This document shows positions 23,358 to 64,000 of a stretch of 64,000 nucleotides of DNA, piece after piece. Within the stretch, counting starts at the first letter, position 1. Each line of letters opens with the position of its first letter. Source of the DNA: Candidatus Omnitrophota bacterium (GTDB lineage Bacteria > Omnitrophota > Gorgyraeia > Gygaellales > UBA12090); contig JAUSCZ010000041.1 of the NCBI GenBank assembly GCA_030674475.1, forward strand, positions 3,481 through 67,480. Reading direction: 5' to 3'. The notes below the pieces were generated by a model. It was not told the DNA's origin. It saw nothing but the letters and a program-made list of their open reading frames with translations, and did not search any database. A program made the translations under genes and the position numbers.

Positions 23358-25625
23358 TTAATTCGGCGAATACCTCTCTTTGCCCTGCTCCACAAACAGC
23401 CCGGTATCCGCGATCAACAGCACTGCCCGGAAGTCCGGGGTAGTTTCTACTCCTCGCTCTTCCTTCAGCCAGCAAAGCCGCAGGAGAAGCGGTAATAATT
23501 GGATCTCTCTTTGCGCGTTAAAGGCGTCCTTCTGGGACATCGCCGCCAGTAAACGCTTAAGCCGGTCGGTTGAAACCTCTATCTTGGCATTAATCATCTG
23601 TTCCATTGCGGCCATTTCCCGGCTTATATCAATCCCCTCCAATTCCGCCTTACTCAACAGCGGCAGGCGCAGGTCCAACCCCTGGAAGCTTCCCATCGGC
23701 CGGGTGAGGTAGTTGATTCGGGTGAAGTCAATACCGCCGGTAGTTAACGGTGAATTACTATTTTGAGATAAGTCTTGAGTTAATGCCGAAGAGACCTCAT
23801 CCGATTTCAAAAGACCTAATTTATTGGCGGCGGCTTTTGATAAATTCTTGAATCCATCAACCAACGGTTTCAGCGCACTTTTAAGTTCTGGATCTGTAAT
23901 CTTCCCCACATCTTTAACTAAATTGCTTATCGCGCTATTTAAAACATCTAAATCTTTATCTTTCTCTATTCTAAGATCGGCATAATGGAAGTAACCATTA
24001 AATATCTCTCTCCATTTCGGATGATCCTTATAGCTACGAGATAATAAAGTAAGCTGATCCTTAATCGTTTTCTTGGTCTCCTCTACCGTCAGCGGCGAAG
24101 AGCCGGTCTCTTTCTCCTTCTCCAAATATTCTTGAGCTTCATTAAAAACATTAATTAGTTTTTTATCATTCGCATAGGTTCTACTCAGGGATTCAATTGT
24201 GTTGTTTAAGGCCTCAACAACCTTTTTTCTTTGCTCCCTATTCAAATCAGAGAAAGCACGCTTCAAATTTATCTTCCAACCTATATACGCGAACTCTACT
24301 CCTTCCCCATTACCTTCTCTCGCTATTTTTTCCAAATCAATAAGAAAACCATGATTAGCTGATGCTATTGCGTTCAATCTTTCTTGGCTTTCTATGATCC
24401 CAGTTGGCTCAGATAAATGGTTATGTATTGAACCGCCCACAAAAGCACCGCTCACGATAAGTATCGCAAGTCCGACAAGCGTAGACTTTTTCATCTTTGT
24501 TAATAGTGGACTTCCTGCCTTAAAACCGCCTTCAATTAAAGGCTTAGAGTTCCCGGTCATATCTGTTCCCCCGCTGACATAGCTCCTGATTACCTGGCCG
24601 GTGGGAGTGGTTATCTGTTCCTTAAGGTTGTATTCACCCTGCTGGAAGGACTTTTTGTATTCGCTAAAGTAGTAGTCCTTGGTCCAGGCCTCTTTTGAAA
24701 TAAGATTATCTAAGTTATGGCTGTCAATCAGGCTGGAGTATTGGCCGGGCTGGCCTCTGAACTTGTCCTTAAACCAGCGGGAAAGGATGAGCGAGAAAAA
24801 GACCTGGCGGAGTTGGGCGTATTTCTTGGAGGTATTGACCTCCTGGGTGAGCTTGGGCAGGATGAGTTCTCTAATTAGCTGGGTAGAGTATTGGTTGAGT
24901 TTCTTCATCCTTTGGTCATTAAAATTATACTGGTGACCTGGTGACATGGTGTCCTGGCGACTTTTAATGTAATCTTCCTCCAGCATCACTTTCAGGTTCG
25001 CCTTGTAGATATAGGATGAGTCTTCGCTTTCTCTGATTATTACCTCTCCCGGCACTATCCAGGGCCGAGTGATGGTGGGGATAGTAATGTTTTCAGTGCC
25101 GAATAATTCCCCAGCCCTCTTATACAGCTTATCCCAGTATTCTTTGCCTTCAGGAGTTTGGGGCGAGGTCCAACCGGCAGTATCTTTCTTTAGCTGTAAG
25201 TCCGCCTCCAGCATTATCTTACCCATATCGGTCTTTTCTAACTCCGGGTCTATAATCTGCTCCGGGGCATCCGGCCTAAGATTTACCCAAAACTTGTCGT
25301 TGGGTAAGGATAGACCTATCAAGAAATAATTGAATAGCTTCTTGGTCTCATTCTTAAGAGCATTCTCCGATTTCTCCGGTGACCTGGTGACCTGGTGACC
25401 TGGTGACTTCTCGAAGTCACCCTGGTCTAATAACAGCTTAAAGTCATTGCTTTTGATATCGTAAGAGATATACCGTAGGTGAGGGGGACGAAAGCTATCC
25501 GTATTCAAGGCCGACATTTGGTTCAGGTATTTGCCGATATTCAGCTCGGCTACTCCCTGAGCAAAGATGGGTTGGGTTAAAATCAGGCTATGGGATAGAA
25601 TTAAGGATATGGCTTTTTTGAACAT
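23358..25625 (-). CDS. Large hypothetical secreted/membrane protein (755 aa)
   Basis: Signal peptide and an internal TM (LVGLAILIVSGAFVGG). No recognisable catalytic motifs. It carries two in-frame copies of the octamer-repeat element. Confidence 0.5.
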   Translation of the reverse strand: MFKKAISLILSHSLILTQPIFAQGVAELNIGKYLNQMSALNTDSFRPPHLRYISYDIKSNDFKLLLDQGDFEKSPGHQVTRSPEKSENALKNETKKLFNYFLIGLSLPNDKFWVNLRPDAPEQIIDPELEKTDMGKIMLEADLQLKKDTAGWTSPQTPEGKEYWDKLYKRAGELFGTENITIPTITRPWIVPGEVIIRESEDSSYIYKANLKVMLEEDYIKSRQDTMSPGHQYNFNDQRMKKLNQYSTQLIRELILPKLTQEVNTSKKYAQLRQVFFSLILSRWFKDKFRGQPGQYSSLIDSHNLDNLISKEAWTKDYYFSEYKKSFQQGEYNLKEQITTPTGQVIRSYVSGGTDMTGNSKPLIEGGFKAGSPLLTKMKKSTLVGLAILIVSGAFVGGSIHNHLSEPTGIIESQERLNAIASANHGFLIDLEKIAREGNGEGVEFAYIGWKINLKRAFSDLNREQRKKVVEALNNTIESLSRTYANDKKLINVFNEAQEYLEKEKETGSSPLTVEETKKTIKDQLTLLSRSYKDHPKWREIFNGYFHYADLRIEKDKDLDVLNSAISNLVKDVGKITDPELKSALKPLVDGFKNLSKAAANKLGLLKSDEVSSALTQDLSQNSNSPLTTGGIDFTRINYLTRPMGSFQGLDLRLPLLSKAELEGIDISREMAAMEQMINAKIEVSTDRLKRLLAAMSQKDAFNAQREIQLLPLLLRLCWLKEERGVETTPDFRAVLLIADTGLFVEQGKERYSPN
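24930..24961. repeat. Degenerate copy of the ggtgacct-octamer element inside the 755-aa CDS (encodes ...SPGHQYNF...)
   Basis: ctggtgacctggtgacatggtgtcctggcgac flanked by attaaaa/ttttaat. Confidence 0.6.
25370..25409. repeat. 40-bp octamer-repeat element inside the 755-aa CDS (encodes SPGHQVTRSP)
   Basis: atttctccggtgacctggtgacctggtgacctggtgactt, followed by the hairpin ggtgacttctcgaagtcacc. Near-identical to 63157..63197 in leuS. Confidence 0.85.
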
Positions 25626-35565: not shown

Positions 35566-37131
35566 TTAACCTTTTTTTATTTTGCTCATTATACCATAAA
35601 AACACATAAGCGCAAAACATCCCAAGACAAAAACATCACCGATACTTTGATAAAGACTTTTTGATTTTGGGCTCAGAATAATGTCCTGAGTTTTTATGCC
35701 GGAGACAAAAATGTCTTTACCATTTTGAATAAGCCTGGAGATAACCCTGCCGCGGGAATCAATAAAACAGGATATTCCGGTGTTGGCCGAGCGCGCTAAA
35801 GGAAGCCTGTTTTCTACAGCCCGAAATACCGAAGCCGATAAATGCTGATAGGGAGCGGTAGTCTCTTTGAACCAGGCGTCGTTAGTGATATTCACCAAAA
35901 AGTCCGCTCCTTCTCTGGCGAAATTACGCGAGAGCTCAGGCAGGGTATCTTCAAAACAGATAAGCGCTCCAAATTTAGCGGATAGCGGATAGCGGATAGC
36001 GGATAGCAAAAATAAAGTATAATTATTACCAGCAGTAAAGTCTCCGATCGGAACGATACTCTCCAGAAATTTGAATGCGCCTTTTAAGGGAATATATTCT
36101 CCGAAAGGCACTAAATGCAGTTTATCATAACGGCCGGATATCCCAAATTCATTTATCAGCAGGGCGCTGTTAAAATATTTCCTTTTTTCTTTGACTACTG
36201 AGCCAACCAGCAGGGGAATTTTTATCTCCTTGGCCAGGTTAAAGATATTTTCGTTTACCCGCGCGTCAGACTCATCACCCAAGAAGCCGGGATTGGACGC
36301 CTCCGGCCAAATTATTAAATCCGGCTTAGCCAAAGCCGCTTCTTTAGTCAAACGGATGTATCTATCTAAAATAAAGGCCTGTGAACCAGAAGCCCATTTT
36401 AACTCCTGGGGAATATTGCCCTGGATTAAAGAAATTTTAAACAGCTTTCGGCTTTCGGCTGGCCAGAAGGCCGTGGTTGGGCCTCCGATGGCCCAAGCCA
36501 CTTTCGGCTTTCGGCTTAATTGATAATAGCCATAAACTAAAATTATAGAAAAACTTAACACGAAGACTGAGCATTTTCTTATTTTGCTTGAGGCTGAAAG
36601 CTTGAGGCTGAAAGCTGAGTATATTACTATATTCGCCATTACCACCAAAAAAGAAACACCGTAGGCGCCGAAAAGATCGGCAATCTGAATAATCGGAAGA
36701 TTTAAATATTGGGAATAGCCTAAAAGCGCCCAGCCGAATCCGGTCAAAAGATGAGCCCGCAGATATTCCAGGACAACCCAGAGGGAAGGAAGAAACAAAT
36801 AGTTGATAGTTGATAGTTGATAGTTGATAGTTGAGAAACATAAACCAAAAAATCCAAAATATAAAGATAAATATAAAATCAGGAGGATTTGGCCAAGCAG
36901 GGTAACGTGGACTAACCAATAGATGGTCAATGTCCAGAAAATTAGTCCGGTTAGATAAGATAATAAAAAGGCTTGAAGTTTAGATTTCTTCTGGAAGGAG
37001 AAAAATAAAGGCAGGAAGGCAAACCAGGCAAAAAACCAAAGCCGGCCCTCGAAAAACGGCAGGCTTAATAATACTCCGGAAATGATACTAAGAATTAAGG
37101 AACCGCGTTTACTAAGAAGGCCATAAACCAT
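35566..37131 (-). CDS. lnt: Apolipoprotein N-acyltransferase
   Basis: 521 aa with an N-terminal polytopic domain and a C-terminal CN-hydrolase domain (ICFED, Cys). It contains several in-frame tandem heptamer repeats. Confidence 0.8.
   Translation of the reverse strand: MVYGLLSKRGSLILSIISGVLLSLPFFEGRLWFFAWFAFLPLFFSFQKKSKLQAFLLSYLTGLIFWTLTIYWLVHVTLLGQILLILYLSLYFGFFGLCFSTINYQLSTINYLFLPSLWVVLEYLRAHLLTGFGWALLGYSQYLNLPIIQIADLFGAYGVSFLVVMANIVIYSAFSLKLSASSKIRKCSVFVLSFSIILVYGYYQLSRKPKVAWAIGGPTTAFWPAESRKLFKISLIQGNIPQELKWASGSQAFILDRYIRLTKEAALAKPDLIIWPEASNPGFLGDESDARVNENIFNLAKEIKIPLLVGSVVKEKRKYFNSALLINEFGISGRYDKLHLVPFGEYIPLKGAFKFLESIVPIGDFTAGNNYTLFLLSAIRYPLSAKFGALICFEDTLPELSRNFAREGADFLVNITNDAWFKETTAPYQHLSASVFRAVENRLPLARSANTGISCFIDSRGRVISRLIQNGKDIFVSGIKTQDIILSPKSKSLYQSIGDVFVLGCFALMCFYGIMSKIKKG
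35979..36006. repeat. Tandem heptamer (cggatag)x4 inside lnt CDS (encodes LSAIRYPLSA)
   Basis: gcggatagcggatagcggatagcggatagc. In-frame within the lnt reading frame. Confidence 0.85.
36445..36514. repeat. Paired ctttcggctttcgg direct repeats flanking a 42-bp hairpin-containing segment inside lnt CDS
   Basis: ctttcggctttcgg ... ttgggcctccgatggcccaa ... ctttcggctttcgg. Encodes SRKPKVAWAIGGPTTAFWPAESRKL in-frame. Confidence 0.7.
36585..36618. repeat. Tandem 14-15-mer (cttgaggctgaaag)x2 inside lnt CDS
   Basis: gcttgaggctgaaagcttgaggctgaaagctgag. Encodes FSLKLSASS in-frame. Confidence 0.7.
36801..36835. repeat. Tandem heptamer (agttgat)x4.5 inside lnt CDS (encodes STINYQLSTINY)
   Basis: agttgatagttgatagttgatagttgatagttgag. 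Confidence 0.85.
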
Positions 37132-37150
37132 AAACTATAAACTATAAACT
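37123..37150. repeat. Tandem heptamer (ataaacy)x4 spanning the secA-lnt junction and the lnt ATG
   Basis: ataaaccataaactataaactataaact. The lnt ATG (37129-37131) lies within the second repeat unit. A related ctataaactatcaactataaac lies at 40071-40093, between prfB and secA. Confidence 0.75.
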
Positions 37151-53689: not shown

Positions 53690-54233
53690 CTAAGCGCTCC
53701 AGCACCCGCCGGGCCAAATCGGCTATGGCCAGGTCAAGAGCGGCCTTCTCGGTCTTAGCCTGGGTGCCGGTGATAAAATAAGTCGCGTCTCCCACAAAAT
53801 TAGGTTCCTCCCAGAGAGGGGTTTCCTCCCCCTTTTTTAAGAGGACCAGGCGCATTATCAGGCTAACGCGGTATTCGGCAACATCCTCCTGGTTATTCTC
53901 ATAACGCAGGGCATCCCGCTGGTAGTTAATCAAATCGCCCTTGAGAACTATATCCGCGTCTTCTTTCTTGGCCACGCGCATTCCTCCATCAAACATGAAA
54001 CGGTTGATAACCGCGGCGCGGATGTCATTTTCTAACAGCGGATGATAGGTCCGGAATCTCTGCCCCAGTCCGGTGGCATCCTCGGAAAGCAGATCAACCT
54101 TATTAGCAAATGGCTCAACAAAGATAGTTTTATACGGTCCCCGGTAAATCGTGCGGCTGGTATAGCCGCAGCCGAACAAAGCAGAAAGCAGAAAGCAGAA
54201 AGCAGAAAGCGAAAAAAGATTGCGTTTTTTCAT
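53676..54233 (-). CDS. lptE: LPS-assembly lipoprotein LptE-like
   Basis: 185 aa with lipobox LFGC. Its size and position upstream of holA match the leuS-lptE-holA arrangement of E. coli. Confidence 0.55.
   Translation of the reverse strand: MKKRNLFSLSAFCFLLSALFGCGYTSRTIYRGPYKTIFVEPFANKVDLLSEDATGLGQRFRTYHPLLENDIRAAVINRFMFDGGMRVAKKEDADIVLKGDLINYQRDALRYENNQEDVAEYRVSLIMRLVLLKKGEETPLWEEPNFVGDATYFITGTQAKTEKAALDLAIADLARRVLERLVENW
54181..54208. repeat. Tandem heptamer (gcagaaa)x4 encoding the LptE signal-peptide hydrophobic core (FSLSAFCFLLSA)
   Basis: gcagaaagcagaaagcagaaagcagaaagc. Reads in-frame on the minus strand. Confidence 0.85.
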
Positions 54234-61877: not shown

Positions 61878-64000
61878 TTAAATTACTATGTTTACCAATT
61901 TTCCGGGAACCACGATAATTTTCTTTGCCGGCTTATCCTCAATCCACTTCTTTATTCCCGGCTCGTTCAGACAACGCTGTTTTAATTCCTCTTCCGCGAT
62001 ATCTTTGCTGACCACGATAGTGCCTCGGTGTTTACCGTTTATCTGAATCACGATGGTGATATTTTCTTCCGTCAGCAGGCTTTCATCGGCTCGCGGCCAT
62101 GGGGCTCGCGTTATGCTTTCGCTGTGGCCTAAGCCCTGCCAGAGCTCCTCGCTAAAGTGCGGGGCAATCGGAGAAATTAAGACAACTAACTGGGAAAAAA
62201 CCTCTTTATCCGCTCCTGACTGATATATGGCATTAACCAACTCCATCAGGCCGGCGATAGCGGTGTTGAATTTAAATTCCTCTATATCGGCGGTAACCTT
62301 TTTGATGGCCTTATGCAGAGCGCGGTAAACTTGAAGGTCGGCCTTTTCTTTTAAGTTATCCTGGATGCGCCAGAGGCGGTTGAGAAATTTAAAGGCCCCC
62401 TCTATCCCCCGGTCATCCCACTCCAGCTCAGTCTCCGGGGGAGCGGCAAAAAGGATAAACAACCTTAAGGTATCCGCGCCGTATTTCTGAATTATGGAAT
62501 CCGGGTCAACAATATTGCCCCGGGATTTTGACATTACCTCGCCGTCTTTTAAAACCATACCCTGGGTGAGCAGGGATTTAAAAGGTTCGTGGAAATCTAT
62601 CATTCCCAAATCCTGAAAGAACTTGGTGAAAAAACGCGAATATAACAAATGTAGGATGGCGTGCTCAATCCCGCCGATGTATTGATCAACCGGCATCCAA
62701 TATTTGGCTTCTTTAACGTCAAACGGATTATTCTCATCTTGGGGTGAACAGAATCTCAAGAAATACCAGGAAGAATCAAAGAAGGTGGCCATAGTATCGG
62801 TTTCCCGGCGGGCTTTTTCCTGGCATTTAGGACAAACGGTATCCACAAATTCCTTAACCTTGCCTAAAGGACTACCCCCCTCACCGGTAAAAGGCGCATC
62901 TTCAGGAAGCTCCACCGGTAGGGCCTCGTAGGGCACCGGAACAATCCCGCATTTCGGGCAATAAACAATCGGAATAGGTGTTCCCCAATAACGTTGGCGG
63001 GAGATAAGCCAATCCCGAAGCCGCCAATGGGTTACAATTTTACCCATACCCTCTTTCTCCATCCATTGGGCAATTTTAATCTTAGCCTCTTGGTTCGCCA
63101 GGCCGTCAAACTCCCCGGAATTAACCTGTAGACCATCACCCTCATAGGCTTCCCTCATTTCTTCCGGTGACCTGGTGACCTGGTGACCTGGTGACTTTAT
63201 CACAATTCGCATTGGCAAATTGTGTTCTTTAGTAAACAAGAAATCCCTCTGGTCATGGGCAGGCACAGCCATAATCGCGCCTGTGCCGTATTCCATCAAC
63301 ACATAGTCGGCAATCCAGACCAGAATAACTTCCCGGTTAACCGGATTAATGCAATAGGCCCCGGTCCAAACCCCTTCTTTTTTTACATCTTCTTTAACCC
63401 GGGATATTTTGCTCTCCTGAGATACCCTCTCTATAAAGGTTAAGGCCTCTTTTTCTTGCGGTCTACCCCGGATAATCTCTTTTACTAAGGGGTGTTCCGG
63501 CGCCAAAACCACATAGGTTGCCCCGAAAATAGTATCCGCTCGGGTGGTAAAGACCGTAATTACCTTATCGCTATCTTTCAGGCGAAAATATATTTCCGTC
63601 CCCTGGCTCTTTCCAATCCAGTTGCTCTGCATGGCGATAACCCGCGGGGGCCATTTATCCAACTGCTTCAAATCCTCCAGCAGACGCTCCTTGTATTCGG
63701 TAATCTTCAGATACCACTGTTCCAGCTCTTTCTGCTCCACCGGACTGTGGCACCTCCAGCATTCACCCTCAATAACCTCTTCATTGGCCAGAGTGGTTGA
63801 GCAGGAAGGGCACCAGTTAACCCCGGAGGCCTTTTTATACGCTAAGCCGCGCTCAAACATCTTCAGGAATATCCACTGGTTCCATTTATAATAACTGCTG
63901 TCGCAGGTGGAAAGCTCCCGCTCCCAATCATAGGAAAAACCCATCTTCTTTAATTCCACCTTCATCCACTCAATACACTTATGGGTCCAATCATCCGGCT
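61878..64000 (-). CDS. leuS: Leucyl-tRNA synthetase, C-terminal ~700 aa (N-terminus beyond the window end); carries an in-frame octamer-repeat insertion
   Basis: Editing-domain and anticodon-binding regions with a KMSKS motif (VMSKSRGN). The ORF-track start at 63965 is internal. The inserted segment SPGHQVTRSP is encoded by 63157..63197. Confidence 0.9.
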   Translation of the reverse strand, partial: PDDWTHKCIEWMKVELKKMGFSYDWERELSTCDSSYYKWNQWIFLKMFERGLAYKKASGVNWCPSCSTTLANEEVIEGECWRCHSPVEQKELEQWYLKITEYKERLLEDLKQLDKWPPRVIAMQSNWIGKSQGTEIYFRLKDSDKVITVFTTRADTIFGATYVVLAPEHPLVKEIIRGRPQEKEALTFIERVSQESKISRVKEDVKKEGVWTGAYCINPVNREVILVWIADYVLMEYGTGAIMAVPAHDQRDFLFTKEHNLPMRIVIKSPGHQVTRSPEEMREAYEGDGLQVNSGEFDGLANQEAKIKIAQWMEKEGMGKIVTHWRLRDWLISRQRYWGTPIPIVYCPKCGIVPVPYEALPVELPEDAPFTGEGGSPLGKVKEFVDTVCPKCQEKARRETDTMATFFDSSWYFLRFCSPQDENNPFDVKEAKYWMPVDQYIGGIEHAILHLLYSRFFTKFFQDLGMIDFHEPFKSLLTQGMVLKDGEVMSKSRGNIVDPDSIIQKYGADTLRLFILFAAPPETELEWDDRGIEGAFKFLNRLWRIQDNLKEKADLQVYRALHKAIKKVTADIEEFKFNTAIAGLMELVNAIYQSGADKEVFSQLVVLISPIAPHFSEELWQGLGHSESITRAPWPRADESLLTEENITIVIQINGKHRGTIVVSKDIAEEELKQRCLNEPGIKKWIEDKPAKKIIVVPGKLVNIVI
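63157..63197. repeat. 40-bp octamer-repeat element inside leuS (encodes SPGHQVTRSP), followed by the hairpin cacaattcgcattggcaaattgtg
   Basis: atttcttccggtgacctggtgacctggtgacctggtgactt. Identical core to 25370..25409. Confidence 0.85.

Follow-up and report, generated by a model that had tools for sequence, protein, structure and literature searches.

Tandem octamer and heptamer arrays in frame at conserved loop slots of core genes in Candidatus Omnitrophota

Introduction

A stretch of 64,000 nucleotides of contig JAUSCZ010000041.1 from a Candidatus Omnitrophota bacterium, here called the window, carries the same octamer tandem repeat in frame in two unrelated genes, namely leuS, encoding leucyl-tRNA synthetase (LeuRS), and the gene of a secreted protein of 755 amino acids (aa). 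Essential genes would be expected to be free of tandem repeats whose unit length is not divisible by three, and the locus raises the question of how such an array comes to stand in leuS, and why the same one recurs elsewhere. The initial annotation had read the octamer as a transposed or templated element and not as local slippage. The reading that we favour, with moderate confidence, is that it belongs, as a cassette of four octamers (about 33 nt) locked in frame, to a genome-wide class of tandem arrays with 7- or 8-nt units that lie in permissive surface-loop slots, are kept by slippage or conversion and are occasionally copied between sites.

Results and discussion

The octamer copies of the window are in frame and lie between native codons

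On the forward strand, the octamer GGTGACCT forms an exact array of 3.75 units at 63166-63195 in leuS and at 25378-25407 in the 755-aa gene, and a four-unit copy with three mismatches, scored at 79% matches, lies in frame in the latter at 24930-24961. A two-unit probe of 16 nt with at most two mismatches gave eight matches in the window and none in 100 dinucleotide shuffles, which bears out the element as initially annotated in these two genes. Nearly all window genes are on the reverse strand, and the coding unit is AGGTCACC. There both perfect copies read AAGTCACC(AGGTCACC)3GGA, with 35 identical nucleotides encoding KSPGHQVTRSPE in leuS and in the 755-aa open reading frame (ORF) alike. The cassette in leuS (gene at 61878 to beyond 64000, the N-terminal ~95 codons lying past the window edge) occupies 63165-63197 on the reverse strand and has the form AAGTCACC(AGGTCACC)3G, 33 nt or 11 codons (KSPGHQVTRSP), in a variable loop that follows ...AHDQRDFLFTKEHNLPMRIVI. 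An identical 33-nt cassette with the same peptide forms slot 1 of the 755-aa protein (gene at 23358-25625, no Pfam match) at 25377-25409 on the reverse strand, and slot 2, at 24930-24962 on the same strand, holds a degenerate AGGTCACC-type array of 33 nt (AGTCGCC AGGACACC ATGTCACC AGGTCACC AG) in a different repeat phase, encoding SRQDTMSPGHQ.

All three copies keep the reading frame, as had been noted. Because 8 and 3 have no common factor, each of the three frames of (AGGTCACC)n yields the same stop-free cyclic peptide, RSPGHQVT, so that the shared peptide, although real, adds no evidence of its own. The opposite strand has TGA in all three frames, and thus only one orientation of the array can be coding. 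As 7 and 8 are both coprime to 3, only three-unit changes preserve the frame.

The identical flanks, initially taken as part of the element, turned out to be native codons of each gene. The 3' flank common to both perfect copies differs by a 1-nt indel and is hence read in different frames, and in leuS this flank, GAAGAAATG, consists of native E-E-M/L codons that are also present in orthologues with no array or another array. A hairpin had been described after each copy; one is found beside the leuS copy (10-nt stem, 63201-63224) and one beside slot 1 (GGTGACTTC/GAAGTCACC at 25402-25421), but none at the third copy, and as the leuS stem is formed by the conserved H-N-L-P-M-R-I-V codons, we rejected the leuS-side hairpin as a part of the element. 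The attaaaa/ttttaat pair around the third copy does not mark element ends either, being conserved Y-I/L-K-S ... Y-N-F codons present in array-free paralogues. Terminal inverted repeats, target-site duplications and conserved ends outside the repeat, as a transposon or miniature inverted-repeat transposable element would have, were not found; the flanks are native codons, and the flank listings contain no target-site duplication. Near leuS and the 755-aa gene, among the partly annotated ORFs of the window, no second copy was fit to serve as the template of a diversity-generating retroelement. A role as Chi site, FtsK-orienting polar sequence (KOPS), uptake sequence or restriction site was rejected, since single octamers are not over-represented outside arrays.

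The leuS slot is old and its content is rewritten

The best matches of the window's LeuS, at 92-74% identity (92% for the closest in the protein collection), are all from Candidatus Omnitrophota. Between ...MRIVI and EAYEGDG, 106 orthologues are hypervariable in sequence, yet the segment measures 15 or 16 aa in 87 of them, and at least three identities at an offset of 7 or 8 residues were counted in 32 of the 106 loops, against 4.1 expected from shuffling. The slot DNA was examined in seven orthologues, and arrays stand at one codon position: (AAGTCACC)4 in locus L120, AAGTCACC AGGTCACC AGGTCACC GGGTCACC in L119, (AGAGCACC)4 in L122, (AGTCCAC)4AG in L121, (ACCGTCG)4ACCG in L123 and (ACTCCCA)4ACTCCC in L125, while L124 has a one-unit state (IEPPEEL) that is exactly 8 codons shorter. 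The leuS arrays thus have four units, usually perfect, and the 7- or 8-nt unit differs by lineage. By the initial annotation, the same decapeptide in LeuS orthologues of distant taxa would speak against its reading. Within the phylum this is the case: the decapeptide is identical or nearly so in orthologues of only 74-92% identity, and P0120, at only 74% identity, contains the identical KSPGHQVTRSPEE.

The loop aligns to a short loop, ERPGEPL---PEPLERAYEEPG, of Thermus thermophilus LeuRS (1H3N, about residues 367-377). This loop lies ~20 residues past the AHDQRD motif, which would put it within the CP1 editing domain, in its C-terminal part. In an AlphaFold model of the window's LeuS, which is poor (mean predicted local distance difference test score, pLDDT, of 64), the array segment is coil (pLDDT about 56). 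Both the alignment to this short loop and the hypervariability of the site among the 106 orthologues agree with the earlier proposal that the extra peptide is tolerated. The array slot of leuS is ancient and common to almost all Omnitrophota orthologues, of which about 100 carry a tandem array at this codon position, although the LeuS tree is star-like and ancestral states are therefore uncertain. What had been described as an insertion into leuS is not a recent invasion: the copy is an old resident of a hypervariable loop and not a fresh transposon insertion.

Slots of the 755-aa protein family

Q7J72_09795, from an Omnitrophota metagenome-assembled genome (MAG) at NCBI, matches the 755-aa protein at 100% identity; the protein is one of a large family of Omnitrophota paralogues in which no Pfam domain is recognised. 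Compared with same-genome paralogues, slot 1 has 11 additional codons in this protein, and the orthologue in L067 has 13 or more units there. In slot 2, the degenerate array stands in place of a native 33-nt loop, with the length unchanged; this native loop, SSQPSALSSQQ, is itself an old heptamer array and is conserved in all paralogues. A third slot is empty in the window, filled with a 33-nt AGGTCACC-like array in L067 and occupied by SPQSTVHSPQ in other paralogues. The family is specific to Omnitrophota and combines a signal peptide with a conserved N-terminal domain of ~370 aa; at least eight paralogues in the window's genome (among them P0128, P0129, P0137, P0145, P0189, P0194 and P0220) have very different C-terminal regions fused to it.

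Arrays of this class fill slots in many core enzymes and are held at four units

When GTDB species, each represented by one genome, were scanned with 22 nt of the repeat, at least 118 loci were found, against about 0.07 expected by chance as estimated from the collection size. Many come from few MAGs, assigned to Omnitrophota, Bacteroidota, one Chthonomonadaceae, one Acidobacteria and low-GC MAGs labelled Planctomycetes. Octamer loci number three in the window's 64 kb, at least seven in CAYHAI01, at least nine in CAYNFH01 and four in JACRHO01. Thirty of 48 low-GC arrays lie inside long ORFs, from which coding status was judged, and the 21 array-bearing ORFs that were checked (by Pfam, and by solved LeuRS structures for leuS) are core enzymes: a NuoM-type antiporter, PurM, PurQ, a GltD-like protein, an ABC ATPase, the 5-enolpyruvylshikimate-3-phosphate (EPSP) synthase family, PheS, RnfC, PrmC, UDG, IspD, Tgt, LeuC (in two genomes), RecG, TopA, a Mur ligase, KdtA, Dxs, Lnt and LeuS. 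Four-unit AGGTCACC arrays stand in frame in more than 20 housekeeping genes of MAGs of Omnitrophota type other than the window's. Nearly every tandem array in the low-GC loci has a period of 7 or 8, with 28-45 nt and 4-5 copies; the loci were picked by the repeat pattern, which biases the counts of period-8 arrays.

The unit number in coding AGGTCACC arrays is exactly four in 24 of 30 and otherwise 3, 5 or, once, 13, whereas non-coding arrays range from 2 to 9, which is the pattern that a reading-frame filter predicts and in line with the initial expectation that units change in threes. Coding arrays are held at four units while non-coding ones vary freely. The frame is kept in members of a cluster of at least 90% identity and in two strain pairs with 98%-identical leuS, and no out-of-frame alleles, as single-unit changes in phase-variable contingency loci would give, were seen among the arrays compared. 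About two thirds of coding AGGTCACC arrays end in ...CACCAG.

As in leuS, the orthologous slots of lnt, purM, topA, the EPSP-synthase gene, leuC and the ABC ATPase gene hold arrays in different species, with the same or different units. In purM, (AGGTCACC)4AG in L020 corresponds to a AAAGAACT array in L050, with identical boundaries and both slots exactly 33 nt long. For topA, the EPSP-synthase gene, leuC and the ABC ATPase, AGGTCACC/AAGTCACC-type arrays occupy orthologous slots across 60-86% aa identity. Four array slots of lnt (35566-37131 in the window) are common to the window's genome and JACRHO01, with differing units, the contents being STINYQLSTINY in the former and ITNYELRITSYEL in the latter at one slot, and SAIRYPLSA and QVTRSPGHQVT at another. 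On the reverse strand of the window, lnt carries (GCTATCC)x4.6 at 35976-36007, where L075 has (AGGTCACC)4 and L040 a different array; (TCAACTA)x5.1 at 36799-36834, where L040 has (GAATTAC)x5.7; and 2.2 copies of a 14-mer (31 nt) at 36586-36616, where L040 has (AGGTCACC)4.

Contig ends coincide with several arrays (L056, L091; L040/L075), and short tandem repeats can break assemblies, so an assembly or sequencing artefact was considered. We regard its probability as negligible, because arrays stand at the same codon in independent ENA, JGI and NCBI assemblies from different assemblers and the long ORFs of conserved enzymes are always preserved.

Strain-level change and probable copying between sites

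The leuS genes of L119 and L136 are 98.2% identical, and five of their 44 differences fall within the 33-nt array, where the units AA/AG/AG/GG correspond to AA/AA/AA/AA, homogenised to AAGTCACC at constant length. Concerted change of an array without change of length therefore occurs between 98%-identical strains, and one 90% cluster contains three array variants among its members. The same pair has a 198-nt patch (nt 1287-1485), about 170 nt downstream of the array, with 30 of the 44 differences in genes that are otherwise 99.6% identical, and this patch looks like an import by homologous recombination.

In a second pair of 98% identity, L134 and L135, a GC-rich insert of 33 nt, CCACCGCCAAGGCGGGGTGCCGCCAAGGCGGCA, is present in one strain only (L134 4137-4169); it separates unit 2 from unit 3 of an (AAACCAG)4 array, precisely at their boundary, and bears no relation to its flanks. 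The insert contains two copies of the hairpin-forming CCGCCAAGGCGG, and no other copy of it was found among the loci examined. A whole 33-nt cassette can thus be in one strain and missing from another; presence or absence of a whole cassette was seen in this pair, where the cassette is a different one, and in slot 3 of the 755-aa family (L067 against the window), and no presence/absence of the leuS AGGTCACC copy at an otherwise identical site was seen.

Unrelated genes of one genome may share unit, codon phase and array ends. A MAG from Hainich has (AGTCCAC)4AG in leuS, and an unrelated paralogue gene of this MAG has it with a single mismatch, in the same codon phase and with the same ends; CAYHAI01 has (ATACGCA)4ATACG followed by ATATA in two genes. 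Taken together with the non-local 33-nt polymorphism, such cases make some copying between sites seem necessary. Copying of whole cassettes is further favoured by the common CACCAG end of coding AGGTCACC arrays, by isolated GGTCACC seeds being no commoner than expected and by a 42-nt GC-rich hairpin that splits an array in lnt of the window. Homogenisation of units throughout a genome was rejected, since the Hainich MAG with AGTCCAC in leuS has the AGGTCACC type in its 755-aa orthologue.

A dedicated trans-acting system that pastes or writes pre-formed cassettes of about 33 nt, consisting of four 7- or 8-nt units, and overwrites earlier ones would account for several of these observations. Candidates are a Y1/HUH transposase of the type associated with repetitive extragenic palindromic (REP) sequences (REP-associated tyrosine transposase, RAYT), a telomerase-like reverse transcriptase with a short template, or an integrase. 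Such a writer fits the gain or loss of a non-local 33-nt block between 98%-identical strains, the 33-nt difference between filled and empty slots, the purM slots, which measure 33 nt exactly and hold unrelated octamers within the same boundaries, slot 2 overwritten at unchanged length, the sharing of one unit, phase and ends by unrelated genes of a single genome, and the recurrence of units across genomes and across phyla as named in record titles. Furthermore, a Y1_Tnp gene with inverted repeats adjoins leuS in L122. On the other side, terminal inverted repeats and target-site duplications were not found, the short and full forms of leuS differ by 24 nt, that is by three units, close relatives have, in their leuS slot, units that vary by degrees from the local K/R-S/A-P codons, the Hainich MAG speaks against genome-wide homogenisation, the Y1_Tnp gene has no copy in the window or the other loci by tblastn, and heptamer units are unable to form the hairpins that HUH enzymes need. 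We consider this explanation unlikely, but a serious rival of the favoured reading. Slightly less probable still, in our estimate, is its extended form, in which a sequence-programmed enzyme in Omnitrophota, and possibly in other phyla, would write ~33-nt blocks of four 7- or 8-nt modules, direct or alternately inverted, at pre-existing slots in essential genes, with a telomerase-like reverse transcriptase or a polymerase that reiteratively copies a short template in break repair as candidates. If this were true, surface loops of proteins would be continually rewritten.

The Y1_Tnp gene of L122 (3903-4565, 220 aa, IS200-like or RAYT-like) follows leuS directly and lies between the inverted repeats TTAGGGACAGACAC and GTGTCTGTCCCTAA.

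Seeds, slippage and the weighing of the favoured reading

Octamer units also occur in Actinobacteria, and all seven actinobacterial loci that were checked against Pfam are 3' ends of P450 genes. The ends ...LPVTW* (CCGGTGACCTGGTGA) supply a 13-nt seed, and extra octamer units follow the stop codon, so that these P450 ends represent natural slippage of the octamer from a coding seed. A mobile element crossing phyla was rejected for the seven loci on this ground. One or two extra GGTGACCT units just past the stop were seen in the cytochrome P450 genes with this ending in L032, L074, L066, L053, L051, L061, L076 and L009.

This independent expansion of one seed is in favour of a purely local explanation, by which all arrays would arise separately from chance seeds and AGGTCACC would recur because its near-palindromic core, GGTNACC, is prone to expansion; the variable copy number of non-coding arrays and the concerted change within arrays point the same way. 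However, isolated GGTCACC seeds occur at the expected frequency (33 observed, 34 expected), of the same order as the arrays, which would demand an implausibly high rate of conversion at sites that tolerate 8 extra residues. In addition, array ends are non-random, non-palindromic heptamers recur within genomes too, the L134 insert is not derived from its flanks, and the way from one to four units in an essential single-copy gene passes through lethal frameshifts. We therefore regard slippage by itself as improbable. The initial claim of a templated or transposed origin is sound in that the copies are too alike for independent chance, but its exclusion of slippage goes too far in view of the P450 seeds and the concerted change between strains.

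The favoured reading, frame-locked cassettes in permissive slots, combines both processes. The arrays would be selfish or neutral DNA that fills loops and is tolerated there; their homogeneity may be due to slipped-strand mispairing, to template switching or to conversion within the array, selection would purge any change other than multiples of three units, and a non-homologous templated process may occasionally copy an array to another slot, which would be the reason why a unit recurs in unrelated genes. Several points weigh against it. No enzyme or donor template for the copying of cassettes was found, and slippage by three units up or down cannot alone homogenise four units, so that conversion or rewriting must be assumed. 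Filled and empty states differ by 33 and not 24 nt in slot 1 against the paralogues, in slot 3 of L067 against the window and in L134 against L135, which fits the insertion of a pre-formed cassette better than a local expansion by three units, and heptamer and octamer arrays alike are ~33 nt long. Moreover, orthologues of 60-78% aa identity keep exact AGGTCACC at the same slot, and this unit reappears in distant lineages of LeuS, a conservation that exceeds what neutral drift predicts. The phylum names of some MAGs are record-title labels only.

Conservation beyond the neutral expectation would be explained if the unit were under selection, either as a peptide (a flexible S/T/P-rich linker or modification site) or as a protein-binding site on DNA or mRNA. 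Perfect arrays in old slots and the conserved loop length would agree with this, and a role as regulator or G-quadruplex sites has been suggested for heptamer families of a related kind (PMC4679880, PMC4692102). Nevertheless, the same slot holds unrelated units, and hence unrelated peptides, in close relatives, one genome contains many different units, the host genes are functionally unrelated, and nothing ties the arrays to gene starts or ends in Omnitrophota, which makes a selected function very improbable in our view.

Relation to known repeats

Rickettsia palindromic elements are short repeats dispersed in unrelated, even essential, ORFs, where they keep the frame and add a peptide in tolerated surface regions; they are about 100-150 bp long, palindromic and not tandem arrays. 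The Omnitrophota cassettes differ from them in their 33 nt, four direct units and lack of palindromic ends. Contingency simple sequence repeats (SSRs) of Haemophilus and Neisseria also lie in ORFs, have units that are not a multiple of three and share slipped-strand mispairing as mutational engine, but they toggle surface and virulence genes by single-unit changes, whereas the Omnitrophota arrays are locked at four in housekeeping genes. With REP sequences and their REPIN doublets, mobilised by RAYT/Y1 enzymes, the cassettes share the very short length (20-40 nt), the non-autonomous state and many copies per genome. Further REP-like features are the GC-rich hairpin inserts in two arrays (L134; window 36444-36517), the inverted array pairs in Acidobacteria and Chthonomonadaceae and the Y1_Tnp gene beside leuS in one relative. 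However, REPs are extragenic imperfect palindromes, while the cassettes of leuS and the 755-aa gene are direct repeats in ORFs, and no RAYT turned up in the window.

Among known repeats, the dispersed heptamer SSR families come closest: the long SSRs (LSSRs) of Mrazek et al. 2007, as cited in PMC4679880, the short tandemly repeated repetitive (STRR) heptamers of Cyanobacteria, the TAACTGA repeats of Beggiatoaceae, Cyanobacteria and Bacteroidetes (PMC4679880), and GGGAATC of Xanthomonas and GGGGA(C/T)T of Nostoc (PMC4692102), where a four-unit preference is also reported. Like these, the Omnitrophota arrays are head-to-tail repeats of a unit of the 7-nt class, a given unit recurs at many loci within one genome as well as in scattered phyla, one of the two orientations may have stop codons in every frame, and no mechanism of dispersal is known for either. 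In terms of the LSSR/STRR type, they have a head-to-tail unit of 5-11 nt beyond chance length and one unit at many unlinked loci in several genomes. They depart from it in location: the heptamer families are mainly intergenic and under-represented in ORFs, whereas most low-GC arrays lie in frame in long ORFs of conserved enzymes, among them essential genes, at conserved slots. Their unit is of 8 nt, with 7-nt relatives, and one Omnitrophota genome carries many different units, both unlike the heptamer families. In the literature searched, no report was found of arrays that lie in frame in essential genes, occupy conserved slots and change their unit rapidly, the repeat sequence string occurred in no paper, and the combination 'Omnitrophota' and 'tandem repeats' gave nothing relevant.

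Dozens of core enzymes (LeuRS, PheRS, TopA, RecG, PurM, Dxs, Lnt and others) carry arrays held in frame at four units, at positions conserved throughout the phylum and with sequences rewritten on strain-level timescales. The system thus offers natural material for the question, standing since the 1990s, of how dispersed heptamer and octamer families such as STRR, TAACTGA and GGGAATC spread, as alignable proteins allow filled and empty, or earlier and later, array states to be compared at the level of single codons. The slots also mark permissive insertion sites in many enzymes, and array loops call for caution as hypervariable markers and assembly breakpoints in MAGs.

Further arrays in the window and in other genomes

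Two further features were observed in lnt of the window. An (AGTTTAT)x4 array at 37123-37150 overlaps its ATG start codon (...AGTTTATGGTTTATGG...), similar to the TAACTGA repeats upstream of start codons in Beggiatoaceae. At 36444-36517 on the reverse strand, an AGCCGAA heptamer array of about 4.4 units is split by a 42-nt GC-rich in-frame insert that contains the hairpin TTGGGCC-ATCGGA-GGCCCAA and looks like a miniature REP-like element that landed inside the array. In the signal peptide of LptE, (CTGCTTT)x5.4 lies at 54178-54214 on the reverse strand and encodes the hydrophobic core (FSLSALSALSAL...), with an orthologous array at 18053-18089 in L121, a relative with 88%-identical LeuS.

In high-GC MAGs of Chthonomonadaceae and Acidobacteria (L101, L018, L090, L016, L022, L083, L117), the octamer occurs mostly as inverted array pairs, (GGTGACAG)n, a loop and (CAGGTCAC)n, which would form long hairpins in apparently intergenic DNA, and some pairs have a longer left flank in common (ACAGGGTGACAAGGACTCG.AGCGC). 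A viral origin of the octamer was rejected for lack of enrichment, as three IMG/VR contigs contained the pattern and 2, 1 and 0 contained three composition-matched control octamers. One such contig, 3300042504_001487 (L127 1-290, L129 10560-10939), carries a long higher-order repeat with periods of 41 and 57 nt, built of (GACCTGGT)n blocks and GCTGCTGTT in alternation, beside G-runs and (TA)n. Finally, at L126 7512-9551 a gene for a thiamine pyrophosphate (TPP) enzyme of the pyruvate:ferredoxin oxidoreductase beta type contains an intein with the Pfam domains Intein_splicing, Hint and LAGLIDADG.

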